From Nitrospirota bacterium (GTDB lineage Bacteria; Nitrospirota; Thermodesulfovibrionia; UBA6902), in assembly GCA_016213935.1 (NCBI GenBank), contig JACQZG010000009.1:647-64646 (forward strand): a stretch of DNA of 64,000 nt, in the 5' to 3' direction. The notes below the pieces were generated by a model, which was not told where the DNA came from, did not search any database, and saw only the letters and a program-made list of their open reading frames with translations. The position numbers were made by a program, and so were the translations under genes. Below, in pieces: positions 1,435 through 38,647 of the stretch. Each line of letters starts with the position of its first letter. Within the stretch, counting starts at the first letter, position 1.

Positions 1435-3447
1435 TTGATCTCAAAACCTCTCAAATTTTCAAGTCTCAGCAAAGGCTTCATCAGGCCGACGTTAATCGTT
1501 CCTCTCTTTATAACACTCCTCTTTCTTCTTCTTACAAAGATCAACCCCTCGATAATAGACGAGCAGCTTGAGACGCTTTTTGTCGATTACCGCTTCAAGG
1601 CCGGCGATCTTATCCGCCGCCAGACCCCTCCGCCGGATATCGTGATAGTGACGATTGACGAGAAGAGCCTCTCACAGTACGGAAGGTGGCCCTGGCCGAG
1701 GCACCTGCAGGCCGGGCTCATAGATAAAATATTCGAAGGCGATCCGCGCGCCGTATCAGTGGATATATTTTATCCCGAGTCCGAGTCTCCTGAAGCGGAT
1801 ATCGCGTTGTCAGAGACCATTGAAAGGCAGAGGGGCAAATTAGTGATGGCTCTCGGGTTTGAGGGTGAGAAAGGAAAGGGTTTTACGGAAGATATCCCTG
1901 ACGTTCTTTATGAAGACGCTTTAATGAATCTCAAGAATGTGCAGTATCTGAAGGCTCTCGAAACATACAGGGTCCTCCTCCCGCCCGAGCCCATAGCTTC
2001 TTCGTCGGATTTCGGCCATGTTTACGCGCTCCCAGACATGGACGGGAAGCTGAGATGGGAGAATCTCTATATCAAATTCGGCGATGAATATTTTCCTTCG
2101 CTTGCTCTCAAGACAGCTCTGTCCGCGCTTAATATTCCTATGCAGGATGTGAAGGTGATCGGCGGCATAGGCATCGAGGCCGGCAATATCTTCATACCCA
2201 CAGACCTGTACGGGCGTTTGCATATCAAGTATTACGGCAGAGAGGGGACGGTCGCTCATAAGTCAGCGGCTGACGTGCTTTCAGGCAGAATCCCTGCTGG
2301 CCACTTTAAAAACAAGATCGTTATTATCGGGACTACCGCGATTGCCACATATGACACGAAGGTGACGCCGTTCTCGGCGAATTTTCCCGGAGTGGAAAAG
2401 AACGCCACAATAGTCGCCAATATTATAAAAGGCGACTTTATGACGCGCTCTCCCGTATATGCCGATATGCTTCTTGTTATACTTGCCGGGCTTTCCGCCC
2501 TTTTCATAGCACAGAGAAACATGAACTCTCTGTCGCTTCTCGCAAGCTTCCTTGCAGTCTTCATTGTATTTGTCACGGCAAATCAGGCGCTTTTCACATA
2601 TCATAATCTCAGGTTTAATTTTATATATCCTCTGATGACCCTTTTCAGCGTCGGGACCTTCGCGGTTAATTACAAATATTTTGTCGAGGAGAAGAAGGCG
2701 AGAGAGATAAAGAGGATGTTCTCAAGCTATGTCACCGAAAGGGTGGTGAATGAACTCATTAAGAGGCCGGAGATGGCAAAGCTCGGGGGCGACAGGAGAG
2801 ACGTCACGATATTCTTCTCTGACATAAGGTCGTTTACCACGTTCTCGGAAAAGCATGAGCCAGAAGAGGTCGTTGCCATGCTGAACGAATACCTCGGAGC
2901 CATGACCGAGATTGTCTTTAAATGGGAAGGGACCCTCGACAAGTTCATAGGAGACGCGATAGTCGCGTTCTGGGGCGCGCCTCTCCCTCAGGAGAATCAC
3001 ACCGAGCTTGCCCTCCAGTGCTCGCTTGACATGTCAAGAAAACTTGTCGAGCTTCAGGAGAAGTGGAGATCCGAGGGCAAGGCCCCGCTTGATATCGGGA
3101 TAGGGATTAACGCCGGAGAGGCCATTGTAGGCAACATTGGAGCGGAAGGCAAGAAGATGGACTATACGGTAATCGGCGACAATGTCAACCTTGCCTCGAG
3201 GGTAGAGTCTCTTACAAAAAGGTATAATGCCCGCATCCTGATGACGGAATTAGCAGTTGAGCGGATTCGTGAAAGCCTAACCGGCGGAAGGATAAAAGGC
3301 GTTTCAGCCGAAGGCCTTGAACGCGTTATCGTGAAAGGGAAGGATACCCCTGTCGGGCTTTATAGAATAACATCACTGGAGGAGGGGATGCCCTCTGTTA
3401 TTTCCGAACCCCGGCCCGGCGAGGTTCTTAAACTTGATGAAAAATGA
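1435..3447 (+). CDS. CHASE2 sensor domain-containing class III adenylate/guanylate cyclase
   Basis: N-terminal TM helix, then a periplasmic region with the GRWPWPR CHASE2-type motif. Multiple TM helices follow. C-terminal cyclase homology domain (RDVTIFFSDIRSFTTFSE ... KFIGDAIVAFWGAP ... IGINAGEAIVGNIG). The track start at 1366 overlaps the upstream gene by 62 nt; a TTG at 1435 is chosen and the start is uncertain. Confidence 0.8.
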   Translation: MISKPLKFSSLSKGFIRPTLIVPLFITLLFLLLTKINPSIIDEQLETLFVDYRFKAGDLIRRQTPPPDIVIVTIDEKSLSQYGRWPWPRHLQAGLIDKIFEGDPRAVSVDIFYPESESPEADIALSETIERQRGKLVMALGFEGEKGKGFTEDIPDVLYEDALMNLKNVQYLKALETYRVLLPPEPIASSSDFGHVYALPDMDGKLRWENLYIKFGDEYFPSLALKTALSALNIPMQDVKVIGGIGIEAGNIFIPTDLYGRLHIKYYGREGTVAHKSAADVLSGRIPAGHFKNKIVIIGTTAIATYDTKVTPFSANFPGVEKNATIVANIIKGDFMTRSPVYADMLLVILAGLSALFIAQRNMNSLSLLASFLAVFIVFVTANQALFTYHNLRFNFIYPLMTLFSVGTFAVNYKYFVEEKKAREIKRMFSSYVTERVVNELIKRPEMAKLGGDRRDVTIFFSDIRSFTTFSEKHEPEEVVAMLNEYLGAMTEIVFKWEGTLDKFIGDAIVAFWGAPLPQENHTELALQCSLDMSRKLVELQEKWRSEGKAPLDIGIGINAGEAIVGNIGAEGKKMDYTVIGDNVNLASRVESLTKRYNARILMTELAVERIRESLTGGRIKGVSAEGLERVIVKGKDTPVGLYRITSLEEGMPSVISEPRPGEVLKLDEK

Positions 3448-3484: not shown

Positions 3485-4252
3485 TTATATTCTTATTAAT
3501 TTATTGTCTGACAGGATCTCGGTTTTGACGCCTGTATTTTTTTTAAGCTCTCTTATAATTTCAGATCGGTAACTCGGCGATATGTGCGTAACGAGTATTC
3601 TGTCCGGGACTTTCTTCATCTTTTTCAGTTCTTCCGAGAGGAGTGAAGGGGTCAGATGGCCTGATAAAAGAGCAAGCTGTTTCATCGAGTCGGGGAATGC
3701 CACTTCTATTATCAGCGCCCTGACATCATGATAACTCATCATGTTCCACAATTTGTTGGTAGGCCCTGTATCTCCGGTGTATACGAGCGTCCTTCCGTTA
3801 GGGTCTTCGATGATAAATCCGTATGATGGAACGGGATGATTGACCTTTGCGGTACAGACCTGGTATCCGCTTATCTTCATGCAGCTTCCGGCGGCAATAT
3901 TCATGAATTTCATCACAGGTTTTTTTCTGTCAGGGATAGCCGTGAAGTCAGGCCATATGCGGTTATTGAAAATATTTCTCTTTATGTCATTGATGACATC
4001 TCTTCCGCTTATCACTGTCAGCGGTTTGCCGTAATGGCCGTTTACGAGATTCTCGGCAAGAAAAGGGATGCTGTTGATATGGTCGAGATGGGCGTGAGTT
4101 ATGAGTATATGGGTGATCTTTCTCTGGGCTATCTTGTTGAGGACGCACGTTGATGTGCCGGCGTCAAGGAGCAGAAAGTCGTCTATCAGAAATGCCGGAA
4201 GGTTGTGCCCCGGCATGCGCGCTCCAGAAGAGCCGAGTACCCTGATTTTCAT
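3485..4252 (-). CDS. MBL-fold hydrolase resembling class-II 3',5'-cyclic-nucleotide phosphodiesterase
   Basis: ITHAHLDHINS partially matches the class-II cAMP phosphodiesterase signature HxHLDH. The N-terminus (MKIRVLGSSG) is typical of this fold. It is divergent from the crp-like gene and sits next to cyclases. Confidence 0.55.
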   Translation of the reverse strand: MKIRVLGSSGARMPGHNLPAFLIDDFLLLDAGTSTCVLNKIAQRKITHILITHAHLDHINSIPFLAENLVNGHYGKPLTVISGRDVINDIKRNIFNNRIWPDFTAIPDRKKPVMKFMNIAAGSCMKISGYQVCTAKVNHPVPSYGFIIEDPNGRTLVYTGDTGPTNKLWNMMSYHDVRALIIEVAFPDSMKQLALLSGHLTPSLLSEELKKMKKVPDRILVTHISPSYRSEIIRELKKNTGVKTEILSDNKLIRI

Positions 4253-4373: not shown

Positions 4374-5069
4374 ATGTTGCCGGAAGGCGTGATGATAATC
4401 GAAACCCTTAAAAAGAACAAGGTCTTCAGCGCTCTCACAGAGAGGGAGCTAAAAGATGTAGCTTCTTATTTCGAAGCAGCCGCTTTTAATAAAGGAAAGA
4501 CCATCTTTATTGAGGATGACCCTTCCGACTGGTTTTATATTGTGGCCGAGGGCAGGGTGAAGGTCGTAAAACATTCCATAAAGGGCAAAGACGTTATACT
4601 TGAGATAATATCCCCTGGCGAGGTATTTGGCGGGGTAGCCGTCCTCGACAGGAGGCCTTTCCCTGCTTCGGCAGAGGCGATGGAGACGGTGAAGGTTATC
4701 AGGATAAGCCGTAAAAACCTCTTTGCCGTCATGGAGTCTTACCCCGGCCTGAGCCTTTCGCTTGTAACATATTTCAGCAACAGGCTCAGAAATGCCCATG
4801 ACACGCTCAGAGACATCGCTACAGAGCGGGTTGAGATAAGGATTGCCTCTCTGCTTCTGAAGCTCTCTGAAAAGGCGGCTGTTGAGAAAGACGGCTTCAG
4901 AAAGATAGATATTCCCATGACGAGGCAGGAGATAGCTGAGATGGTTGGGACCACGGTAGAGACCGCGATACGAACGATGAGCAAGTTTCAGAAGGAAGGA
5001 ATGATAAGGACTTCGGGAGGAAGGATATTTGTCGCTAATGCGCCCCTGAGGGTATTTCTTCAATCTTAA
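4374..5069 (+). CDS. Crp/Fnr family transcriptional regulator (cNMP-binding domain plus C-terminal HTH)
   Basis: Beta-roll cNMP-binding region (GKTIFIEDDPSDWFYIVAEGRVKV...). C-terminal HTH reads MTRQEIAEMVGTTVETAIRTMSKFQKEGMI. Confidence 0.85.
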   Translation: MLPEGVMIIETLKKNKVFSALTERELKDVASYFEAAAFNKGKTIFIEDDPSDWFYIVAEGRVKVVKHSIKGKDVILEIISPGEVFGGVAVLDRRPFPASAEAMETVKVIRISRKNLFAVMESYPGLSLSLVTYFSNRLRNAHDTLRDIATERVEIRIASLLLKLSEKAAVEKDGFRKIDIPMTRQEIAEMVGTTVETAIRTMSKFQKEGMIRTSGGRIFVANAPLRVFLQS

Positions 5070-5140: not shown

Positions 5141-6151
5141 ATGACCGTAAATCGGCAGGAGGCTGTATTGGATAATGATAGCGTGGAGAATGCTGAATAT
5201 CATAATGGCAAAGCCGTTCTCAATCTTTGGCTCGGCATAGCTTCCCTCATTGCGGTTCCTTTTTTTCTCCTTCTTGCGTGCCTCAGGTTTCTGGAGAGCA
5301 TCCTCCCTTTAAATATTTTTGTTTCACTCATAAAACTTCGCGAAACACTCTCCTCCCTTTCACCTTCGGGAATCAGTTTTGATTTGATTTTGTGGGCCTC
5401 CGTAATATTGCTGGTAGCATTGTTTCTGTTTTTTAACAGCAAGATGAGGCATCACAGCAACATGGCTCTCAGGTCAAGCGTCAGCAGGGATTTTGAAGAG
5501 CTTAAGGAAAAGACGCATCTCTCCGAGACATCAAAAGTACTCTCGCCGCTTAAGGAAAGGCTCGATGAATCGGCAGGCAAGGGGGGCAAGGTTCACAGGG
5601 ATGAACTTCTTAAAATATTTGCCGAGACAAAGAAGAAACTTGACACCATGGGCAGGGACCTCGCTTTTCTCTCGATAGACATAATGGATTCGACAGGCAT
5701 GAAGCAGGGCGAGGAGAAGGCGGCCATAGAGCATGATTTCAAGGAATATAAGCAGATGGTTGAGGAGATAATAAAGCGCAACGATGTGATGAAGTCCGCC
5801 TGGACTCCTGACGGCGTGATGATATGTTTTGACGACACGGATAAGGCCGTAAATGCCGCAAAGGAAGTTTTAAGGTCTCTTGATAATTTCAACAGGAACG
5901 TAAAGATGATAAAGAGGGATTTCAGGGTGCGCTGCGGCATCAATTCAGGCTTTGTGTACTGTGATGACTCCACGCCGATGGAGGAGATGAGCGACAGGGT
6001 CATAGATATCGCCGGCCACATGCAGAAATATGCAGAGGGAAACAGCGTTTACATGAGCAAAACGGTTCTCTGGCTGCTGCAGGACCGTTCGGGCTTTGAG
6101 CCTGCGGGGAAAGAGGTGGACGGGCTTGAGGCCTTTGCCTGGAAGGGGTGA
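5141..6151 (+). CDS. Membrane-anchored cyclase-homology-domain protein (second adenylate/guanylate cyclase-like)
   Basis: Two or three N-terminal TM helices. The C-terminal region carries class III cyclase-like motifs (FLSIDIMDSTGM ... RVRCGINSGFVYC). The motifs are degenerate, so activity is uncertain. Confidence 0.55.
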   Translation: MTVNRQEAVLDNDSVENAEYHNGKAVLNLWLGIASLIAVPFFLLLACLRFLESILPLNIFVSLIKLRETLSSLSPSGISFDLILWASVILLVALFLFFNSKMRHHSNMALRSSVSRDFEELKEKTHLSETSKVLSPLKERLDESAGKGGKVHRDELLKIFAETKKKLDTMGRDLAFLSIDIMDSTGMKQGEEKAAIEHDFKEYKQMVEEIIKRNDVMKSAWTPDGVMICFDDTDKAVNAAKEVLRSLDNFNRNVKMIKRDFRVRCGINSGFVYCDDSTPMEEMSDRVIDIAGHMQKYAEGNSVYMSKTVLWLLQDRSGFEPAGKEVDGLEAFAWKG

Positions 6152-14139: not shown

Positions 14140-14889
14140 ATGATGAGAAGAATATTGACGTTATCGACACTGATTTTAACTTCTGTTTTTTTAGTTTCAG
14201 TCAATATCGGGTGTGACAGTTCAAAAAAGACGACTGAACCGCAGCAACAGCAGCAGACAAAGCCGGCCACAGGCCCTATCACGAAGGAAACGCACCCGAG
14301 TATTTCGGGCAAAGTCGTTGAGACGATGAACAGCGGAGGTTATACTTATGTAAGGCTCCAGAAGGACGGCAAAGACACCTGGGTCGCCATTAACGAGGCA
14401 AAGATAGAGATCGGGGCGGAGATGGCATTTTATCCGGGTGATGTGATGAACAATTTTACAAGCAAAACGCTTAACCGCACCTTTGACAGCGTTATCTTTT
14501 CACCGGGGGTAGTTGGACAGGAGGCAAATACAACCCCTCCTTTTATGAGCAAAGGCGCGATTAAGACAGAGATACAGGATGTTAAGGTTGAAAAGGCTGC
14601 CGGTTCAGATGCCTACACAATAAATGAGCTCTACCAGAAGAAGGATACTCTTAATAAGAAGACTGTCACTGTAAAGGGAATGGTTGTGAAGGTCTCGACA
14701 GGGATCATGGGCAAGAACTGGGTTCATATTCAGGATGGCACCGCAAAGGATGACCTTGTCGTGACAACTGATACTGTTCCTCTTGAAGGCTCTGTGGTTA
14801 CGGTAAAAGGAACTTTAAGCAAAGACAAGGATTTCGGTGCCGGCTATGTTTATGCCGTATTGATTGAGGATGCGGCGATATCAAAATAG
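14140..14889 (+). CDS. Lipoprotein with two related beta-rich domains (hypothetical)
   Basis: ATG at 14140 with an AGGAG RBS. Signal peptide with a lipobox (VSVNIGC). The two halves share similar segments (GKVVETMNSGGYTYVRLQ / VKGMVVKVSTG...NWVHIQ). Confidence 0.5.
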   Translation: MMRRILTLSTLILTSVFLVSVNIGCDSSKKTTEPQQQQQTKPATGPITKETHPSISGKVVETMNSGGYTYVRLQKDGKDTWVAINEAKIEIGAEMAFYPGDVMNNFTSKTLNRTFDSVIFSPGVVGQEANTTPPFMSKGAIKTEIQDVKVEKAAGSDAYTINELYQKKDTLNKKTVTVKGMVVKVSTGIMGKNWVHIQDGTAKDDLVVTTDTVPLEGSVVTVKGTLSKDKDFGAGYVYAVLIEDAAISK

Positions 14890-14910
14890 GATTTTTGCAT
14901 AAGATCACTA

Positions 14911-14943
14911 AAGCCCCTTACTCGCCGTAAGGGGCTTTTTTTG
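14911..14943 (+). terminator. Rho-independent terminator
   Basis: AAGCCCCTTAC-TCGCC-GTAAGGGGCTT hairpin followed by TTTTTTTG. Confidence 0.65.
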
Positions 14944-25327: not shown

Positions 25328-26035
25328 TCAGGACTTCTTAATTTTTTTCAGCCCTTCTTTAGCCGCCATCTGTTCAGCCGCCTTTTTTGTCTTGCCGCTG
25401 CCTTTTCCGAGCATATCATTGTTGACCTTGACAGAGGCCTCAAATAATTTCTCGTGCTCCGGCCCTTTTTCGCTGTTTATCAGGTATTCGGGCAGGCATC
25501 CGAACTTTGCCTGAGTGATCTCCTGAAGAAGTGTTTTGAAGTCCACTAAAAGGTCGTCTTCGGTGATTTCAAGGAGATTATGGCTAAGAGAGCGCAGGAT
25601 GAAGTCTCTTGCCTTCTTCATCCCGCTGTCGATATATATTGCCGCGATAACCGCTTCGAAAGCATTGGCAAGAAGCGACGGTTTATTCCGCCCTCCGGAT
25701 ATTTCTTCGCCTTTTCCCATGAACAGGTATGACCCGATATCAAGCCGCTCAGCCGCCTCAGCAAGCGTGGCTTCCTTCACGAGGTAGGATTTGAGCTTTG
25801 AAAGTTTTGACTCGGGATATTTTCTGAAGTTCTCGAAGAGGTATTCGCTTATGACAAGGCCGAGAACAGAATCTCCGAGAAATTCAAGGCGCTCATTGTG
25901 AATCTGCCGGCTCTCCTTATTCTCGTGTGAATAAGACTTGTGGGTAAGGGCTTCTGTTGCGAGGGATCTTTTTTTGAAAGAATGCCCTATCGCCAGCTCA
26001 AAATCAGCTATATCTTTTGAAGACGATGGTGGCAT
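25328..26035 (-). CDS. rnc: Ribonuclease III
   Basis: [20 protein letters not shown] catalytic signature and a C-terminal dsRBD. Confidence 0.9.
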
Positions 26036-29229: not shown

Positions 29230-30741
29230 ATGTATAACTTTAACAGCCTCAAGTTCAAAATTTCCTTCGTTACTTTTCTCCTTATCTCCATAATAATGTC
29301 GGCAACCACATACAGGGATATCAAGTTGACAGAGCAAAAACTCATCAAAACGCAGCAGGAGAAGACTGTCCTCCTGTCTGACAGGATAGCTCACGGGATA
29401 ATGGTACTGATGCTGAAGAACAGGTGGCAGGAACTTCAGGCCATGATGCAGAATCTTGTAAAGGACAGCAATGAACTTAAGGAGATACGAATATTCCTTC
29501 CCACTGACGGGACAATAGTTGTATCCTCTGAAGAAAAAGAAATCGGGACAAAGATATACGCTGAGGATTTAATAAATTACAATAAAGGGAATTATGAGGA
29601 AGCTTTTTTGATAAATAAAGATGATTCCATTTATGCTTCAAAACTGACGCTTTTAAAAAACGCTCCTGCGTGTTTCAGGTGCCACGGGACAGAAAAGGAT
29701 GTGCTCGGAGTTATGGATGTCGAGCTCTCGCTTTTGAATGTGCATAACGCAATCGATGATTTCACCAAAGAGCATATCACGGATGCGTTTATCGGTTTTA
29801 TCATGTTAATGGGCACATTCCTCTTCTTGGTCGCGATCATGATTGACAGGCCTGTTAACAGGATGGTCAACACCATCAGAAGATTGGAGAAGGGGGATTT
29901 CTCAGCCAGAATGAACATCAGGTCTAAAGACGAGTTCGGGCTTCTCGCGGCCAGCTTTGACAATATGGTCGAGGCGCTTGAATCCGCAAAAAAAGAGCTT
30001 GAGCTTACCCATGAGATCAAGATGGAGAGGGCGGCAAAACTCGCAACTATCGGGGAGGTTGTTGCGGGCATTGCTCATGAGATAAAGAATCCTCTTACCG
30101 GAATAAGCTGCGCGGTGCAGCTTCTGCAGGTGGACATGAGCGAAGATGACAAGAACAGGGATGTCACTGAAAAGATACTGAGCCAGGTAAAGAGGCTTGA
30201 CAGGACAGTGAAAGACCTCCTTAGTTACGCCAAACCGAAGGCGGCAAAGTTTTTGCCTGCCAATATAGGCGAAGTTATTGACAGGGCAGTATTCCTTGTA
30301 TATCCGGAGGCAAAAAAACTTAACGTGAAAATCAATGCAACCGTTGCGCAAGACCTTCCTGATATCGTTATGGATACTGACCAGATGCAGCAGGTTGCGC
30401 TTAATTTGATGATAAACGCTCTGCAGGCTATGCCGGAGGGGGGCATACTGAATGTCAGCGTCTATCAGAAAAAATACAATGAAGTTCGCGATGAGTTGAA
30501 GTCCCCATTAAACTGTGAGAATGTTCTTGTTATGTCTTTTGAAGACACCGGCAAAGGGATCTCACAGGAGGACATGGAATATATTTTTGAGCCCTTTTTT
30601 ACCAGGAAATCAAAAGGGTCGGGGCTCGGGTTGTCCATAACGCAGAAGATCGTCCGTGAGCATGGCGGGGTGATTACATGCAGAAGCGCTCTTGGCAAAG
30701 GTTCTTTTTTTACGATATACTTGCCGATAACAAAGAAATAG
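29230..30741 (+). CDS. Sensor histidine kinase with periplasmic c-type-heme (CXXCH) sensor domain, HAMP, HisKA and HATPase
   Basis: TM1, ~150 aa periplasmic domain containing PACFRCHG, TM2, a HAMP domain, the H-box AHEIKNPLTGIS and the G-boxes GSGLGLSI. The sensor resembles Tll0287-like heme-c PAS-type sensor domains. Confidence 0.8.
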   Translation: MYNFNSLKFKISFVTFLLISIIMSATTYRDIKLTEQKLIKTQQEKTVLLSDRIAHGIMVLMLKNRWQELQAMMQNLVKDSNELKEIRIFLPTDGTIVVSSEEKEIGTKIYAEDLINYNKGNYEEAFLINKDDSIYASKLTLLKNAPACFRCHGTEKDVLGVMDVELSLLNVHNAIDDFTKEHITDAFIGFIMLMGTFLFLVAIMIDRPVNRMVNTIRRLEKGDFSARMNIRSKDEFGLLAASFDNMVEALESAKKELELTHEIKMERAAKLATIGEVVAGIAHEIKNPLTGISCAVQLLQVDMSEDDKNRDVTEKILSQVKRLDRTVKDLLSYAKPKAAKFLPANIGEVIDRAVFLVYPEAKKLNVKINATVAQDLPDIVMDTDQMQQVALNLMINALQAMPEGGILNVSVYQKKYNEVRDELKSPLNCENVLVMSFEDTGKGISQEDMEYIFEPFFTRKSKGSGLGLSITQKIVREHGGVITCRSALGKGSFFTIYLPITKK

Positions 30742-30744
30742 GGG

Positions 30745-32145
30745 GTGGCTGGAGTGCAAAGCGTCAAGATACTTGTTGTTGATGACGAGGAACTCATCAG
30801 ATCCTCAATAAAACAGTACCTCGAAAAAGAGGGGCATGAAGTCCTGACCGAAGGAACGGGAGAGGACGGTCTTAAGACATACAGGGCCGAACTCCCGGAT
30901 ATGGTATTTCTCGACCTTCATATGCCCGGGATAAACGGGATGGAGGTTTTGGAGGCAATTAAAAAAATAAACAAAGATACCGTTGTCATAATAATCACGG
31001 CTCACGGCGCGGTTGAGACAGCGGTATCCGCCATAAAACTCGGAGCGTTTGATTTCATAGAAAAGCCTTTTGAGTTCAGCCGGTTGTCAATTTTAATAAA
31101 AAAGGCCCTTGAAACTGTTGACCTCAAGAAAGAGGTAAATTTTTTACGGGGCGAGCAGCATCAGAAGTACAGGTTTGAAAGCATTATCTGTGAGTCCGAA
31201 ATAATGAAGAATATTATTTCGCTTGCCAAAAAGATAGCGGAAAGCGACGCAAACACGGTTTTAATACAGGGAGAGAGCGGGACCGGCAAGACCCTCATAT
31301 CAAGGGCAATTCATTACCACAGCGCGAGGGCTTCTAAACCTTTTGTCGAGATAACATGCACCGCGTTGCCCGAGACGCTTGTCGAAAGCGAGCTTTTCGG
31401 GTATGAGAAGGGAGCATTCACTGACGCTAAATCGGCAAAGAAGGGGCTTTTTGAACTGGCTGACGGAGGGACAGTCTACCTTGATGAAATAGGCGATATG
31501 AAGCCTTCCACACAGGCCAAGTTCCTTAAAGTTATTGAAGAGAAGGTCTTTATGAGGATCGGCAGCCTGAAAGAGACATCTGTTGATGTCAGGATCATCG
31601 CAACGACAAACAGGAACCTGAGGGAAGAGGTTATGAAGGGCAATTTCAGGGAGGATTTATATTACAGGCTTAATGTAATACCCATGGAGTTTCCCGCCTT
31701 GAGGAACAGAAAGGAAGATATATTGCCTACGGCCATGTATTTTCTTGAAACGATGAGGAAAGAGTGCAGAAGAAATATTACCGGCATCTCCAAAGATGTT
31801 CAGGGCCTTTTTTTAAAATACAACTGGCCCGGCAATATCAGAGAGTTGAAGAATGTTATAGAGAGGGTTTTTATTCTCGGGATCGAAGGGCAGCTTCTAC
31901 CTGAGCATCTTCCCCTTGAAATTGCCGGGGTCGGCAGGGAGGCTCCGGTTTTGGGGTCAGTTCATGATCACGATGAATTCAGGTTCCCTATTTCGGATGA
32001 CGGCATATCCATTGAAGAAGTTGAAAAAGAATTCATTATTCAGGCCCTTCGCATGACCGCAGAGAATCAAACAAAAGCGGCTAAACTTCTCGGCCTTTCA
32101 AGGGATGCCCTCAGGTACAGGATGCAGAAGTTCAAACTTCTTTGA
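30745..32145 (+). CDS. Sigma-54-dependent response regulator (NtrC/AtoC family: REC, AAA+ sigma-54 activator, Fis HTH)
   Basis: REC (ILVVDDEELIR...D at FLDLHMPG), Walker A GESGTGKTL, the GAFTDA motif and a C-terminal HTH (AAKLLGLSRDALRYRMQKF). GTG start; it follows the kinase stop by 3 nt. Confidence 0.9.
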   Translation: MAGVQSVKILVVDDEELIRSSIKQYLEKEGHEVLTEGTGEDGLKTYRAELPDMVFLDLHMPGINGMEVLEAIKKINKDTVVIIITAHGAVETAVSAIKLGAFDFIEKPFEFSRLSILIKKALETVDLKKEVNFLRGEQHQKYRFESIICESEIMKNIISLAKKIAESDANTVLIQGESGTGKTLISRAIHYHSARASKPFVEITCTALPETLVESELFGYEKGAFTDAKSAKKGLFELADGGTVYLDEIGDMKPSTQAKFLKVIEEKVFMRIGSLKETSVDVRIIATTNRNLREEVMKGNFREDLYYRLNVIPMEFPALRNRKEDILPTAMYFLETMRKECRRNITGISKDVQGLFLKYNWPGNIRELKNVIERVFILGIEGQLLPEHLPLEIAGVGREAPVLGSVHDHDEFRFPISDDGISIEEVEKEFIIQALRMTAENQTKAAKLLGLSRDALRYRMQKFKLL

Positions 32146-32174: not shown

Positions 32175-34043
32175 TCACTGGGTTTTTTTTATGTAATTGC
32201 CTATCGCGGCTGCGACAACGTCCTTTCTCAGGGCTGTAAGGTTATGGTCATTAGGGTACAAGGCGAGGCCTTCATCAAGTACTGATTTCGACTTCTCATA
32301 ATAGATAAGGGAATTTTTTGGGTCGATTTCTCCAAGCCTGTAGTAAATCAATCCTTCGAGATTATACGAAGGAAGCCCCGGCCTCCTTATCTTCTCTTTC
32401 GCATTCCATAGCAGGAAACTATTTATAAAATCCATGTTCTCGGCAGGGTTTAAAGCGGCGTTAAGAGCTTTTCTGAACATATAATCAGGTTCAGCCCAGT
32501 TTTTCAAATAGATATTTTTTGTTGCCGGGAGAATTTGAGTTTCATCGAGGGCCTCCCCATTCATAAAGGCTTCTTTGTACTGTCCGTATTTCCTGTAATC
32601 GATAAATGTTTTTACGGTATAGGATGAGAGCCCCAGATAGAGCACTGAGAAGAATATAAGTATTGCCGCAGTCGCCTTGTTTCCGGTGCGAATTTCTTTT
32701 ACTCTCGTTTCATCGGATGTAACCATAAACAGCAGTATTATAAACAGGAGAAAGTGAGAGGCGGATAATTCCAGAGGGTATTCGACCATCGTATGCATGA
32801 GCACAGGGATAAGCAGCATAGCATATGCAAAAGTATTACTTACGCGGCCTGCTTTATACAGCATCTTGAAGATCCCAAACAGCGCGAAACCTAAGGCAAG
32901 CATTCCTGCTATCCCGCATTCGGCCAAAATATTAAAAAACTCATTATGAGGATGGCTTATGAATTCATTGTAAACCATTCCCTTGTACAGGGGATTTTCG
33001 GAGGAGACTTTTGCTTTTTTGTGCATAAAAACACTGCTGAAATTAGAGTATCCGTAGCCGAATAAGGGTTTATCCTTGAACATTTCATATGAGGTTTCGA
33101 AGAGAATCAGGCGTTCGACATAGGAACGCTGTGTTATGTCGGAAAGCCATTTGACTTTTTCCTTGGCGGTGCTGTCAGCGCTTTCAACCAGCCCTTTTGG
33201 GCCTGTCTTTGTGCCTGACACATAAAATCCGCAAGCTGTGCCGATAAAAAATATCATGATCCATATTGCTATATATTTTTTTGTCCGCAGATATGCAGAA
33301 TGGTTGGAAATCAAGAGCGCCAAAATGGCCAGCGCCAATCCTATAAGCCCAATCCTTGAATTGGCAAGGAACAGCCCTCCCGCAAGCGGCATAGCAGAGA
33401 TTAAAAATAGTGCCTTCTTTGCCTTTCCGAACAGTTTAAACCTTTCGGTTGTAATAAGGTGAACGCTTATCGCTATACCTGTAGCCGCCCATGAAGCAAA
33501 GAGGTTCTTCTGCTGGAAAGCGCCGCCGACATCAGGTATATATTTGGTCACTTTTACCATGGCAAGAGCGAAACTGATGCCAAAAGAATGTATAGCGTAG
33601 GAATTGACCAGAGCTTTCAATATGACCATGGTTGATTCAATAACTGCTGACATGAGTATCACTATAAGAACAGTTACTTTTTCTCTCTCACTGAATCTGA
33701 ACTGGTGAAGGCTTAACCATATTATTACTGCGGCAATCACGCGCAGGGATTGAATTATAAATATTTCCCTATTTAGGATTGGATTAAATACGGCTGTAAT
33801 CAGGAGGAGAGATGTGTAGGCTGCGGCATATTTAAAATACGACGGCACGATTAGTGCTTTTCTGCTTGTAACGAATGCAGCTGCAATAAGGATCAATGTG
33901 AAGATGCCTATCCAGACTATATATTCCCGAGGATGCGCAAGGGTGCCCCCCATATTCGGGATGGCAATATGCATAATAACGAGCAGGATAACGGATAACA
34001 CCGTAATCGGTAAATATTCAAACGCCTTTTGTGATTTTGTCAA
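32175..34043 (-). CDS. O-antigen ligase (Wzy_C) family polytopic membrane protein with C-terminal TPR-like soluble domain
   Basis: ~10 TM helices and HPHNEFFNILAE (conserved His of the WaaL/PglL type). The C-terminal ~200 aa are helical and repeat-like. It is a paralog of the upstream gene. Confidence 0.55.
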   Translation of the reverse strand: MTKSQKAFEYLPITVLSVILLVIMHIAIPNMGGTLAHPREYIVWIGIFTLILIAAAFVTSRKALIVPSYFKYAAAYTSLLLITAVFNPILNREIFIIQSLRVIAAVIIWLSLHQFRFSEREKVTVLIVILMSAVIESTMVILKALVNSYAIHSFGISFALAMVKVTKYIPDVGGAFQQKNLFASWAATGIAISVHLITTERFKLFGKAKKALFLISAMPLAGGLFLANSRIGLIGLALAILALLISNHSAYLRTKKYIAIWIMIFFIGTACGFYVSGTKTGPKGLVESADSTAKEKVKWLSDITQRSYVERLILFETSYEMFKDKPLFGYGYSNFSSVFMHKKAKVSSENPLYKGMVYNEFISHPHNEFFNILAECGIAGMLALGFALFGIFKMLYKAGRVSNTFAYAMLLIPVLMHTMVEYPLELSASHFLLFIILLFMVTSDETRVKEIRTGNKATAAILIFFSVLYLGLSSYTVKTFIDYRKYGQYKEAFMNGEALDETQILPATKNIYLKNWAEPDYMFRKALNAALNPAENMDFINSFLLWNAKEKIRRPGLPSYNLEGLIYYRLGEIDPKNSLIYYEKSKSVLDEGLALYPNDHNLTALRKDVVAAAIGNYIKKTQ

Positions 34044-34044
34044 T

Positions 34045-35805
34045 TTATTTAATTTCCTTTGCGTCGGCAGATTTCATCTCTTGTTTTAACTTAACCATAC
34101 TGCTCCAGCCAGGGTAAAGATCCAGCCCTTCCTCAAGAAGTTTATATCCCTCTTCCCTTCTTCCTACGACAAACAAAGCAAATGACCCTCTTTCGTATAC
34201 ATGCGGATGCGGGAACACTTCTTTCTCCTTAATGAGAAAGTCAGCATAGTCTTCTATTAACTTCTTGTCGCCCCTCATAAAACCGATCCTGTAATTGGCA
34301 TCAAAATAAAATCTCTTTGCAAGCTGTTCAAGGTACATATTGCCGGTTGCTGGTTCAACAAGTTCAGGCCTGACAATTCCTATAATAAGCAAGTCCTGAT
34401 ATTTTTTCATGGCTCTCTGGGCAATGAGGGTTGTTATTGACAGATACGATATAATTACAAAGAGCGTGGCGGCCGCAGTAAACGCGCTTGCCCGTAAGAG
34501 TCCGGCTGGTCTAATCTTAATTTTCTTTACAAAAGATGACGACGGCAGGTAAAGCAGAAAGAGAAAGAGCGCCCAGTGGGGCATGGACTGATAAAGGGAA
34601 TAACTCACTTGTGTATCAAATGCTATCGGGAACAAAAAAGCCGCGTAAGTTCCGCCCTGTTTTCTTCCAAGTTTTATAAGGCATACCGTAAAGGCGGCTC
34701 CAATCAGCATCAGCCCGGCACTGCCCATTAGGCCGGACTCTACCGTCCTGTACAAAAACTCGTTATGCGGATGAGAGGTAAAGGCAGCTTCATAGGGATA
34801 TTCAGGGTGTTCTTTTGCAAGCCTGCTTCGGTAATGCATGAACCTGCTGCCGAAACTGCCGGGTCCGTGGCCGGTCAGCGGCCTGTCTTTTATCATGTTT
34901 ACAGCAGTAATGTACATCGGTACCCTCATGTCCGTAACCTCGTCTCCTGCTACACTCTCCATCGTCATCCCGATCTTTTGTCCTACGGAACTGAGCGCCG
35001 AGTCCCGTTTGTAGTAATACTTCTCAGCCGCCACACTGCCTGCTATTCCAAATACTATCATCAGCAACCATATGGCGAGATAGAGCGCCTTCTCTTTGTA
35101 ACTCCGATACCTTGCCCATAAGAGTATAAGTGTTCCGGCGCCGGCCTCTATAACTCCTGCCCGTGAGCCCGTCAGAAAAATGATAAAGCACATGAGCATA
35201 ACAAAAAGATAAAAAAGAGTTTTAAGCCATCTGCCGAATCCCTTAAAAATATCTCCGGTTAAGAGATAAAGCGATATCGCAATCGTGGTAGCAAGGTATG
35301 ATGCAAGTAGGTTCTGGTGCTGGAAATTGCCAAATATTTTGTTCGGGGCAGGCGCGACTATAAGAAATATGGCAGTATCAGGATTAAAATACTGAAACAG
35401 GCTTATCAGTGCCTCAGTCATGCCGGAGATAACTATCGCGTATAAAAGCCGTTCCTTCTCATCATTTGAAAACTCAAACTGATGGAGGGAAGCAAAAAAT
35501 ATTATCCCGCCGATAAGCCCGGCTGTCTCAAATATGAAGACATGACGGTCTATTATCGGATTAAAAATTGCTGACGAAAGCGATGATAAGAGGAATAGAA
35601 TTATATATAAGGAAATGCGCGGGACTGAGATGTCCCATTGATTGAATATATGTATCACTGAAAGAAGTACAAGTCCTGACAGCGTTATCCAGACAAGATA
35701 TGCCGCAGGCAGTACAAGGGGGGCGCCGAAGTTCCTGATGGTTATGTGAGAAACCGCCAGAAAGAGCAGCGCGAGAACCCATAAATGGATTTTCTTTGTC
35801 ATCAA
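34045..35805 (-). CDS. O-antigen ligase (Wzy_C) family polytopic membrane protein with C-terminal soluble domain
   Basis: LTGSRAGVIEAG and HPHNEFLYRTVESG motifs typical of O-antigen ligase/O-oligosaccharyltransferase proteins, plus ~10 TM helices. Confidence 0.6.
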   Translation of the reverse strand: MMTKKIHLWVLALLFLAVSHITIRNFGAPLVLPAAYLVWITLSGLVLLSVIHIFNQWDISVPRISLYIILFLLSSLSSAIFNPIIDRHVFIFETAGLIGGIIFFASLHQFEFSNDEKERLLYAIVISGMTEALISLFQYFNPDTAIFLIVAPAPNKIFGNFQHQNLLASYLATTIAISLYLLTGDIFKGFGRWLKTLFYLFVMLMCFIIFLTGSRAGVIEAGAGTLILLWARYRSYKEKALYLAIWLLMIVFGIAGSVAAEKYYYKRDSALSSVGQKIGMTMESVAGDEVTDMRVPMYITAVNMIKDRPLTGHGPGSFGSRFMHYRSRLAKEHPEYPYEAAFTSHPHNEFLYRTVESGLMGSAGLMLIGAAFTVCLIKLGRKQGGTYAAFLFPIAFDTQVSYSLYQSMPHWALFLFLLYLPSSSFVKKIKIRPAGLLRASAFTAAATLFVIISYLSITTLIAQRAMKKYQDLLIIGIVRPELVEPATGNMYLEQLAKRFYFDANYRIGFMRGDKKLIEDYADFLIKEKEVFPHPHVYERGSFALFVVGRREEGYKLLEEGLDLYPGWSSMVKLKQEMKSADAKEIK

Positions 35806-36140: not shown

Positions 36141-36156
36141 TGGTATGCTAATTGCT
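36141..36156 (+). promoter_or_regulatory. Candidate sigma-54 (-24/-12) promoter upstream of the first OmcS-like gene
   Basis: TGGTATGCTAATTGCT gives GG-N10-GC spacing with the TTGC -12 element, ~150 nt upstream of the ATG at 36304. The sigma-54 activator gene is 4 kb upstream. Confidence 0.5.
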
Positions 36157-36303: not shown

Positions 36304-37299
36304 ATGAAAAAAGTACTGTTCACAATGTTCGTAGTACTTGCGGCCGCGTTCATGCTGTATGGAATCGCAGACGCAATCTCCGGCGTGTGCTCCGGATGCC
36401 ACACAATGCACAACAGTCAGGACGGCGCTGCAGTAAACGGTTCAGGCCCCGCAGACATCCTGCTCAAGAGCGACTGTATGGGCTGTCACACCACAGCGTC
36501 AGCAGTTGGACCGAGGGTTGATAATGCGACCTTGCTGTCAGCAGGCTCATTTGCAGATGCCTTTGTAACATCAGACACAAACACCCACAACGTTGAGGAC
36601 CTCGTAGGATTTAATGCCGGCGGCGCTGACGACATTCTTACCTCTAACGATCCACCGGGAGGAAGCGCGGCTGTTTTAACCAAGTTCTCTGGTGCTAACC
36701 AGTTGAAGTGCGCCGGTAGTAACGGCTGTCACGGTAGCCATGATAGTAAAGCTACAAGCTGGGCAGGCATACAGGGTTATCACCATGCAGGCGGGTCAAT
36801 CTATAAGTTCCTTGAGGTTGCTACTGACAACGAAGGCGCAGGCACCGCTGTTGCAGGCACAAAAGATTCAACCTACGAATCAGGCGGAGCAACCGCATCC
36901 AAACATAATATTTACGTGTCCGACGCGGCAACAGGCATCAGCGCATTCTGCAATAACTGCCATGATGTCTTCCACGGCGCGGCGACCACTGACCTGACCA
37001 CCAACGGCCTTTGGAACCGCCACCCGACCGATATATCAATTGCTACTTACCTTGGGGCTTCGGGTGTAACAGTTGATTATGTGAATAACCCGTTTGCATT
37101 CACAGCGGCATACGCAACCACATTAAGCACAACCTCGGCAACAGGTTATGACGCAACTAATGGTTATGTAATGTGTCTGTCTTGCCATCGCGCACACGCG
37201 TCTGAGTACGCAGACCTGCTCAGGTTTAACTATGCTTCACAGAGCGCAGGCGGCGGCGGTACAACAGGATGTCTCGGATGTCACGTGAATCAGAGGTAA
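36304..37299 (+). CDS. OmcS-like hexaheme c-type cytochrome (nanowire-type), paralog 1
   Basis: Strong RBS (AAAGGAGGAATT-ATG) and a signal peptide (MKKVLFTMFVVLAAAFMLYGIADA). The mature N-terminus [17 protein letters not shown] matches the OmcS CEGCHTMHNS start. C-terminal MCLSCHRAHASEYADLLRFNY matches OmcS NCLSCHRAHASGFDSMTRFN. Heme sites: CSGCH, CMGCH, C-x5-CH (CAGSNGCH), CNNCH, CLSCH, CLGCH. Confidence 0.75.
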   Translation: MKKVLFTMFVVLAAAFMLYGIADAISGVCSGCHTMHNSQDGAAVNGSGPADILLKSDCMGCHTTASAVGPRVDNATLLSAGSFADAFVTSDTNTHNVEDLVGFNAGGADDILTSNDPPGGSAAVLTKFSGANQLKCAGSNGCHGSHDSKATSWAGIQGYHHAGGSIYKFLEVATDNEGAGTAVAGTKDSTYESGGATASKHNIYVSDAATGISAFCNNCHDVFHGAATTDLTTNGLWNRHPTDISIATYLGASGVTVDYVNNPFAFTAAYATTLSTTSATGYDATNGYVMCLSCHRAHASEYADLLRFNYASQSAGGGGTTGCLGCHVNQR

Positions 37300-37308
37300 T
37301 TTAATCCG

Positions 37309-37373
37309 CAAGGGGAACCCGTTGGGGTTCCCCTTGCATCTGAGTGGTTAAGCAACTCTTAACCACTCAGATG
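37309..37373 (+). other. Two consecutive perfect stem-loops between OmcS-like paralogs (terminator/attenuator or RNA processing element)
   Basis: CAAGGGGAACC-cgt-GGTTCCCCTTG, immediately followed by CATCTGAGTGGTTAAG-caact-CTTAACCACTCAGATG (16 bp stem). No clear U-tract follows. Confidence 0.5.
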
Positions 37374-37397
37374 CAAGATACGAAAGCAAGGCATATT

Positions 37398-38609
37398 ATG
37401 ATTAAAATAATCATAAAAGAAATGGCAAGAATAAATAATACCAATAGGTATGTTTTAATATTTATTGCAGCCTTGGCTTTAGTTGCTTCTTCAGTAAATG
37501 CAAATATTACAGGCGTATGTTCAAACTGCCATACAATGCATAATAGTCAGGACGGAGCAGCTGTTGTTGGGTCAGGCCCAAACGATGTTCTTTTAACTTC
37601 AGATTGTCTTGGTTGTCACGGCCAGGGCGGCAGCCAGAAGATAATCAGTATCGGGGGAAGTGAGATTCCCCAAGTATTGCATTCTGACGGCACAGGCGAC
37701 CTTGCAGGAGGAAACTTTAATTATATCGGCACACTCGGCGACAATAGAGGCCATAACATCGTTGATCTCGTTAATGGAGATGATGTGTTAGATATACCGC
37801 CCGGGGCTGAATATGGCGAGCATGCCAATCCCGCAAAGATGGTCACTGATTCCGTGCTTACATGCGCAGGCTCTAACGGTTGCCACGGGTTTAGGGCGAT
37901 TGGAGGGAGTTCGAATCTTCAGGCATTAAAAGGGGCGCACCATAAGAATATTACAACTGATTCCACAAGCGGATTTGATGACGATTACAACAGCTATAGA
38001 TTTCTCAGGAAAGTGAAGGGGCATGAGAATGACGGGCAGGTAAATTCCTCAACAAAATGGCAGAATGCCGATGCCAATAACCATAATGAATATTTCGGCG
38101 CTACGTCTCCTCTTGAGTTTGACGCAAACTGCGCAAAGTGCCATTCAAATGCGCCGTCAGCCAACATTGTTCCCCCGCAAAATACTATGAGCGGCTTCTG
38201 CGGCACATGCCATATGAATTTTCATCTCTTAACAGGAACAGAAACCTCTGATATGGGCATAGGAGATTCAACTGTATCTCCATTCAGGAGGCACCCGACT
38301 GATGTTGTGTTGCCTGGGGCAGGTACAGAATATAATAACTATACATCGTACAGTGTGGAGGCTCCTGTAGCGAGGGGCGTGGTTCCTGACAGTATGAGCA
38401 ATGTCGTAACACCCGATAACAGCGGCGTACAGGGTGCGATTGTAATGTGCCTTTCCTGCCATAAGGCGCACGCATCTCAATATCCCGATATGCTGAGGTG
38501 GGATTATGACGGTATGGTTGTCGGCACAACCGGGGCTTCAGCCTTTTTTTCCATTGTCGATAGAAACCGCAGGTATTTATTGCATCTCAGCTTATTTATT
38601 GAAGAATAA
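37398..38609 (+). CDS. OmcS-like hexaheme c-type cytochrome, paralog 2
   Basis: Signal peptide ([27 protein letters not shown]). [26 protein letters not shown]-x5-CH (CAGSNGCH), [14 protein letters not shown] and [23 protein letters not shown]. The start is ambiguous (ATG at 37398 or 37422). Confidence 0.7.
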
Positions 38610-38647
38610 TTGACTCATTATTTTTTTTTTAATATTATTAGTAAGTT

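Follow-up and report, generated by a model that had tools for sequence, protein, structure and literature searches.

In malEFG, pufBALMX and many operons of Escherichia coli, a cut in the downstream part of the message and subsequent 3'-to-5' trimming leave an upstream cistron that is capped by a hairpin and is more abundant (Dar and Sorek 2018, PMC5927463). For Geobacter sulfurreducens, omcS is reported to be transcribed alone or together with omcT, omcT to be transcribed only with omcS, and OmcS to be the predominating protein (PMC1974784, PMC2680965); in addition, omcS is under the control of a 5' GEMM riboswitch (PMC1950547). OmcS-type cytochromes form conductive filaments, and how the ratio of the main subunit to its tandem paralog is set is poorly understood. 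Here we describe a tandem of two RNA hairpins between an OmcS-like cytochrome gene (gene 1) and a paralog (gene 2) in a 64 kb stretch of DNA from a Nitrospirota bacterium (hereafter the window, meaning the whole stretch that was analysed). Comparison with related loci indicates that the tandem is under selection as RNA, and it probably favours the message of gene 1 over that of gene 2.

Gene 1 (36304–37299, + strand) encodes a multihaem cytochrome of 331 aa with a signal peptide, five CxxCH motifs and one longer C..CH motif, and gene 2 (37398–38609, +) encodes a paralogous multihaem cytochrome, also with a signal peptide. After the TAA stop codon of gene 1 (37297–37299) and a spacer of 8 nt (37300–37307) comes hairpin 1 (37308–37337, +), GCAAGGGGAACCC-GTTG-GGGTTCCCCTTGC, with a perfect 13 bp stem whose arms lie at 37308–37320 and 37325–37337. 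Hairpin 2 (37333–37377, +), CTTGCATCTGAGTGGTTAAG-CAACT-CTTAACCACTCAGATGCAAG, has a perfect 20 bp stem with arms at 37333–37352 and 37358–37377 and its loop at 37353–37357. A purine-rich linker of 20 nt (37378–37397, +), A-rich in the orthologs and containing a Shine-Dalgarno-like AAGG (37388–37391), leads to the ATG of gene 2 at 37398. The stems of both hairpins overlap by 5 nt, CTTGC (X', 37333–37337, +), which can pair with GCAAG upstream (X5', 37308–37312) or with GCAAG downstream (X3', 37373–37377); the two hairpins can therefore never be full length simultaneously.

An earlier note on this DNA had placed two hairpins between these genes, and the sequence, the folding energy and a scan of the whole window all bear this out. 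The 111-nt region folds with -51.5 kcal/mol, against -24.6 ± 3.3 kcal/mol in dinucleotide-preserving shuffles (z = -8), and none of 200 shuffles reached its energy. Only three perfect hairpins of at least 12 bp exist in the window, namely hairpins 1 and 2 and a canonical terminator at 14910–14938, compared with a mean of 0.07 per window in Markov shuffles; the hairpin arms have no second occurrence in the window. The arms had been given correctly as far as they went, but the stem lengths of 12 and 16 bp were too short, the loop of hairpin 1 is GTTG and not "cgt", and the shared, swappable segment of 5 nt had been overlooked. The site shows the G+C-rich stem-loop of an intrinsic terminator and lacks its U run (about 5 or more of the 8 nt after the stem): no U tract follows either stem in the window, where the tails read ATCTGAGT and ATACGAAA, and no terminator was called at this site.

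We compared the element in eight sequences of one clade, the window and seven further loci (L001, L002, L003, L084, L085, L086 and L207). These orthologous loci were reached through homologs of gene 1, and an exact-protein look-up of gene 1 gave no contig. The tandem was found directly 3' of the stop codon of the orthologous gene 1 in all seven loci, at 48–67% protein identity, with a spacer of 8–10 nt in seven of the eight sequences and of 16 nt in L207. The gene order of the window is kept in five of them (L001, L002, L003, L086 and L084, the last from a metagenome-assembled genome, MAG, of Thermodesulfovibrionia); L085 and L207 contain the gene 1 ortholog and the element, but in a different downstream context.

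When the eight copies are aligned, 98.5% of the base-pair cells hold standard pairs, and compensatory changes, with both sides altered, occur at eight pairs. None of 500 column shuffles matched the observed values of pairing and covariation, and sliding the partners by 1–3 columns lowered pairing to 24–54%. The non-Watson-Crick cells amount to 8 G.U pairs and 3 mismatches if read on the + strand, and to 1 G.U pair and 10 mismatches on the - strand. Mean pairwise identity is 0.94 for the stem of hairpin 1, 0.79 for the stem of hairpin 2 and 0.46 for the loops; in the adjacent, highly conserved haem-binding coding region it is 0.75 for first and second codon positions taken together and 0.55 for third positions. 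The core of hairpin 1, AAGGGGAAC/GTTCCCCTT, is invariant in the eight loci save for one compensated change of an A-U to a G-C pair in L207. Hairpin 2 varies at 8 of its 14 pairs, through compensatory and G.U changes, and its long form comprises 20 bp in the window and 18–20 bp in the orthologs. The loops measure 4 nt and 3–8 nt; hairpin 1 is closed in the orthologs by C(UUCG)G, C(UCCG)G and related UNCG-type tetraloops, and its loop region is 4 nt longer in the window. Together, pairing, covariation, strand asymmetry and stem conservation indicate that purifying selection acts on an RNA structure of the sense strand, and they argue against chance and against a site in duplex DNA. Judged by this alignment, the hairpins are a selected RNA structure.

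In two independent lineages, changes in the shared segment are matched by changes in both of the stretches with which it can pair. In the order upstream partner, segment and downstream partner, the window reads GCAAG/CTTGC/GCAAG, L207 reads GTGAG/CTCAC/GTGA and five other loci read GTAAG/CTTAC/GTAA; L001 has TTAAG at X5'. In the folding ensemble of all eight copies the segment is always paired, and its pairing is divided between both partners. A fourth copy of GCAAGG, at 37386–37391, coincides in part with the Shine-Dalgarno region of gene 2 and is the complement of CCTTGC at the junction of the two hairpins; within hairpin 1, an AAGGGG that resembles a Shine-Dalgarno sequence is paired with a CCCCTT that resembles an anti-Shine-Dalgarno sequence. 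A possible link between this fourth copy and gene 2 translation is not clearly kept among the orthologs.

The position of the hairpins within a transcription unit can be deduced from conserved signals on both sides. A sigma-54-type promoter-like site, TGGTATGCTAATTGCT (GG-N10-GC; 36141–36156, +), lies about 160 nt upstream of gene 1. The motif TGGTAY-N5-TTGCW precedes gene 1 in all six loci with upstream sequence, 121–163 nt before the start in five of them, and the sites of the orthologs are at 4374 in L001, 3664 in L002, 7961 in L003, 7868 in L084 and 566 in L086. This predicted site is likely to be the start of the transcription unit. After gene 2, a canonical terminator (AAAAGGTTG...CAACC followed by 7–9 T) is conserved in L002, L003, L084 and L086. 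No conserved promoter was found between hairpin 2 and gene 2, where 20 nt leave no room for one. With a promoter before gene 1, a terminator after gene 2 and none in between, the hairpins lie inside a two-gene operon with the predicted order promoter, gene 1, hairpins, gene 2 and terminator. One further match to a sigma-54 promoter, inside the hairpins (TGGGGTTCCCCTTGCA, TGGGGT-N5-TTGCA, 37323–37338), was rejected: it fits GG-N10-GC in the window and in no ortholog, because the loop region of hairpin 1 is longer there, and the fit is probably coincidental.

Termination signals of the usual kind are in use in these genomes. An intrinsic terminator at 14910–14938 (AAAGCCCCTTAC-TCGCC-GTAAGGGGCTTT, then TTTT), after an open reading frame (ORF) that ends at 14889, indicates that the organism of the window uses U-tract terminators. 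In all eight copies of the tandem the U tract is absent, and in most orthologs an A-rich tract lies behind hairpin 2. The use of a U-tract terminator at the ends of units, as opposed to a U-less double hairpin between cistrons, is the chief reason for holding that the hairpins are not simply a terminator. The earlier note had reached the same view from the lack of a clear U tract, and both the observation and the view hold in the wider comparison, given the eight U-less copies and the canonical terminator after gene 2 in four loci. Its further suggestion of a likeness to intercistronic stabilisers or partial terminators finds support in the location of the hairpins, within an operon and between an OmcS-like gene and its paralog.

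A covariance model was built from the eight copies and used to search about 600 kb of sequence with default filters, and the window with filters off. It retrieved only the eight syntenic copies in the approximately 600 kb, and a single copy in the window; within the sequence available, the element is single-copy and bound to one syntenic position. We thus rejected a repetitive extragenic palindromic (REP) sequence or bacterial interspersed mosaic element (BIME), a miniature inverted-repeat transposable element (MITE) or another mobile element, because the tandem is single-copy and syntenic and has no dispersed copies in the sequence searched. The loci with deviating contexts show to which gene the element belongs. 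In L207 it follows gene 1 even though gene 2 is absent, and unrelated small ORFs lie downstream. In L085 the downstream paralog (2866–3273) is short and degenerate, with ruined haem motifs (CSGSY, CLSCQ), and the hairpins persist. Stand-alone homologs of gene 1 (L083, L208 and L209/L210) are without the element, and L209 has an ordinary terminator. These cases indicate that the element belongs to the 3' end of gene 1 of this clade, and not to the 5' end of gene 2; an element of the 5' untranslated region of gene 2 is likewise disfavoured, since L207 retains the tandem without gene 2.

Beyond this clade, we found structure at the same place with another sequence. The tandem motif was not found in L214 (43% identity), which contains three tandem cytochrome genes; there, a single U-less hairpin of 13 bp (GGCAAGGAGAGC...GCTCTCCTTGCC, 4412–4465) lies between two paralogs, and canonical terminators follow the second and the third cytochrome genes, the third being sigma-54-driven. 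A U-less hairpin between paralogs may be a more general design. The specific motif was also absent from 79 metagenome loci at up to 42% identity, the covariance-model search included. In these distant loci, the gene 1 homolog usually has behind it, within some 10–40 nt, a long hairpin rich in G+C that in very many cases is a canonical terminator, and a close co-oriented next gene that is either a gene 2 homolog or an ORF of about 310–325 aa without haem motifs, of the size of an NHL-type propeller. It looks, from these comparisons, as if a first cytochrome gene ending in a strong 3' structure were a general design of such clusters, of which the Nitrospirota clade has its own conserved version.

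Searches against known RNA families retrieved no relative of the tandem. Only two tRNAs reached the Rfam gathering threshold in the window, and the Rfam scan detected no GEMM riboswitch there; a permissive search of 37200–37480 gave at most 24 bits, against thresholds of 61–178, to unrelated families that contain hairpins. A longer pattern used in a scan of viral contigs retrieved three look-alikes with hairpin 1 only, which scored 24–33 bits versus 75–96 for true members. A contig of a giant-virus MAG, L213, carries several hairpin 1-like copies, AAGGGGAAC-N4-GGTTCCCCTT (565–635, 3592–3661 and 5865–5889), which are unrelated to the cytochrome element and probably represent a repeated terminator-like hairpin.

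We think it somewhat better than an even chance, at a probability of roughly 0.55, that the element is an intercistronic stabiliser or processing site that defines a 3' end and favours the mRNA of gene 1 over that of gene 2. It has the properties of a differential-decay element, with a stable structure just 3' of the upstream cistron of an operon that is kept among relatives. RNA polymerase would mostly read through both hairpins, and the downstream message would then be cut at one of two places: in the single-stranded, A-rich linker, or, through RNase III, within the form of hairpin 2 that measures about 20 bp. The cut message would be degraded from its 3' end until exonucleases stall at the very stable hairpins; the gene 1 message would thus be long-lived and the gene 2 message less plentiful, and the presumed major subunit encoded by gene 1 would be made in excess over the paralog.

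Hairpins processed by RNase III between cistrons are known from the early mRNAs of phage T7 and from rpsO-pnp, and the known sites usually contain internal loops or specific boxes. In its long form, hairpin 2 reaches the length of double-stranded RNA expected of an RNase III site (about 20 bp or more), and cleavage of this 18–20 bp form is a plausible first step. The RNase III gene, rnc, does lie in the window (25328–26035, -), as had been noted before; rnc is nearly universal, so its presence there carries little weight.

Several points weigh against a stabiliser. A simple barrier has no need of a three-way covariation of the shared segment, a feature that it leaves unexplained, and the near-invariance of hairpin 1 exceeds what a barrier to exonucleases needs, which hints at sequence-specific recognition. 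Gene 2 has lost its last haem motif in the window, so the protein ratio may matter little in this genome, and the statistics come from just eight sequences of one clade. As to the second point, exceptional stability may by itself account for the constancy of the hairpin 1 core. This core has at least 123 matches in unrelated phyla, which are mostly ordinary terminators, and 73 of the 123 matches listed carry a T or A tract. None of the core matches listed, all from unrelated phyla, includes the tandem element. Being common in unrelated bacteria, the core alone is not diagnostic.

The alternative that survives best, which we nonetheless hold to be unlikely, is a non-canonical partial terminator or pause site, where some of the polymerases would halt although no U tract is present, perhaps with the aid of NusA or NusG, and a monocistronic gene 1 transcript would arise at the level of transcription. 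Both hairpins are indeed very stable, more distant relatives often have a canonical terminator at the same position, and Unniraman and co-workers are said to have proposed, in 2002, that some bacteria possess terminator classes made of tandem hairpins with no U tract. The outcome for expression would equal that of a stabiliser, with which partial termination could act together. Nevertheless, a U tract is missing from all eight copies, the tract behind hairpin 2 is A-rich, and these same genomes use a terminator with 7–9 U after gene 2 and a U-tract terminator elsewhere. Moreover, gene 2 is without a promoter of its own, and hence termination at the hairpins cannot be efficient.

As a speculation, the shared segment might be explained by a junction able to keep complete pairing no matter from which side a ribosome or an exonuclease enters, or by a two-state device that is cut and then capped again. 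We regard such a device as doubtful. Its segment would pair downstream first, so that hairpin 2 spans about two helical turns, a size suited to RNase III; after cleavage, or upon invasion by a terminating ribosome or an exonuclease, it would re-pair upstream and lock hairpin 1 as a 13 bp, tetraloop-closed 3' cap, and a dedicated factor would recognise the nearly invariant hairpin 1. If true, the ratio of subunits in a cytochrome filament would be set by a programmed cut-and-recap switch.

It is also improbable, in our opinion, that hairpin 1 serves as a binding site for a sequence-specific protein or RNA, such as an anti-terminator or a translational regulator of gene 2, with the swap of the shared segment as the regulated step. 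This would account for a stem that hardly changes in eight loci, next to a hairpin 2 with 8 variable pairs out of 14, for a segment that covaries with both partners in two lineages and whose pairing the folding ensemble divides between the two, and for the overlap of the fourth GCAAGG copy with the ribosome-binding site of gene 2 in the window. However, we found no candidate binding protein, the complementarity to the ribosome-binding site of gene 2 is not kept in all loci, and L207 keeps the element without any gene 2 to be regulated. Likewise, there is no second copy in the window, searched with filters off, or in roughly 530 kb of loci, searched with default filters. The loops are unconserved (0.46) and show no ANTAR-type hexaloops and, in the eight copies, no GGA motifs; an antiterminator target of the ANTAR or ribonucleic antiterminator (RAT) type was rejected for the state of the loops, the absence of hexaloops and the lack of overlap with a terminator.

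A feature of the DNA itself (an operator palindrome, a recombination site, a repeated extragenic palindrome or the remnant of a mobile element) is hardly credible and was rejected on strand asymmetry, for although both arms are perfect palindromes in the window and hairpin 1 has as its core an inverted repeat (9-4-9) of nearly constant sequence, the excess of G.U pairs on the + strand (8 versus 1) is expected of RNA and not of duplex DNA sites, hairpin 2 retains its structure while its sequence changes, and the single copy at one syntenic position has no flanking repeats or transposase genes that we could find.

The naming of gene 1 as OmcS-like, already proposed in the earlier note, is justified by a profile of gene 1 relatives that matches OmcS (6ef8) with E = 7.8e-17 over residues 29–311, and OmcE (7tfs) with 7e-6. 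By its similarity over most of the length and its six haem-binding motifs, gene 1 is OmcS-like, and its protein is 100% identical to one from a Nitrospirae MAG. The start of gene 2 at 37398 is backed by the orthologs, and an ORF from a GTG at 37344, inside hairpin 2, is an artefact of ORF calling; a mini-ORF from a TTG in the loop of hairpin 1 was also rejected, as it is not conserved in the orthologs. Gene 2 of the window is without the final GCFxCH haem motif of its orthologs in L002, L003, L084 and L086. In its 3' region (38500–38647), the spacer to the following NHL gene measures 38 nt, versus 141–216 nt in the orthologs, and of the terminator seen in the orthologs a weak remnant is left at 38532–38545, with a T run behind it. 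Such a pattern suggests a deletion, or else a fault of assembly at the run of seven T, and gene 2 may be decaying in this genome.

Downstream of the two cytochrome genes are genes for an NHL propeller, a YVTN propeller, a protein of 746 aa without assigned function and lipoproteins. A TTGACTC promoter-like site stands after the terminator and before the NHL gene in L002, L003 and L086, and in the window a sigma-70-like promoter, TTGACT-17-TATTAT (38610–38638), lies directly before the NHL propeller gene; these accessory genes seem, from such predicted sites, to form a transcription unit apart from the two cytochrome genes. Divergent from the cytochrome operon are genes for two tandem Wzy_C / PglL-like membrane proteins, O-antigen ligases or protein O-glycosylation ligases (32175–35805, -), a pair also kept in L001, L002, L003 and L084, which might glycosylate extracellular cytochromes. 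Beyond them, a histidine kinase and a sigma-54-dependent response regulator, an activator, are encoded at 29230–32145, which, together with the predicted site before gene 1, suggests two-component, sigma-54-dependent control of the cytochrome operon.

In all, the element is a small, well-supported structured RNA motif with an unusual swappable junction and no Rfam match, and we found no description of it in the papers that we consulted. It represents a concrete, conserved RNA candidate for the mono- and bicistronic pattern in another, uncultured phylum, Nitrospirota, including Thermodesulfovibrionia, and it provides defined nucleotides to mutate. The principle of a protective or processing hairpin between cistrons is already established and the conceptual gain is modest; what is new is the sequence family and one unusual structural feature.

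Compared with Rho-independent terminators, the tandem shares a G+C-rich hairpin shortly after a stop codon, and its core is used as a terminator stem in many unrelated bacteria; it differs in the absence of a U tract from eight copies, in its A-rich tail, in the promoterless gene that starts 20 nt further on and in the canonical terminator that follows gene 2. As in the RNase III sites of T7 and rpsO-pnp, an intercistronic stem of about two helical turns is present (18–20 bp in the long form of hairpin 2), together with rnc, and cleavage of hairpin 2 would, as in that type, leave the upstream hairpin as a 3' stabiliser. The likeness is closest to the elements of Rhodobacter capsulatus pufBA|LMX and E. 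coli malE|malF, where stable stem-loops also stand just 3' of the cistron presumed to be needed in excess, within the operon, with the real terminator further downstream and with a structure conserved in related species. Unlike those, the Nitrospirota element belongs to an unrelated sequence family and consists of two abutting hairpins that share a segment of 4–5 nt able to pair either way, with one of the stems near-invariant; it is also single-copy, whereas the malE-malF element is a repeated REP sequence. Differential decay is known for the puf and malEFG type and is predicted here from structure and layout. Geobacter belongs to a different phylum, and its omcS-omcT pair likewise consists of an OmcS-family gene followed by a co-oriented paralog, with an upstream product that is reported as far more abundant; the transcript pattern reported for that pair is the one that the Nitrospirota element would produce.

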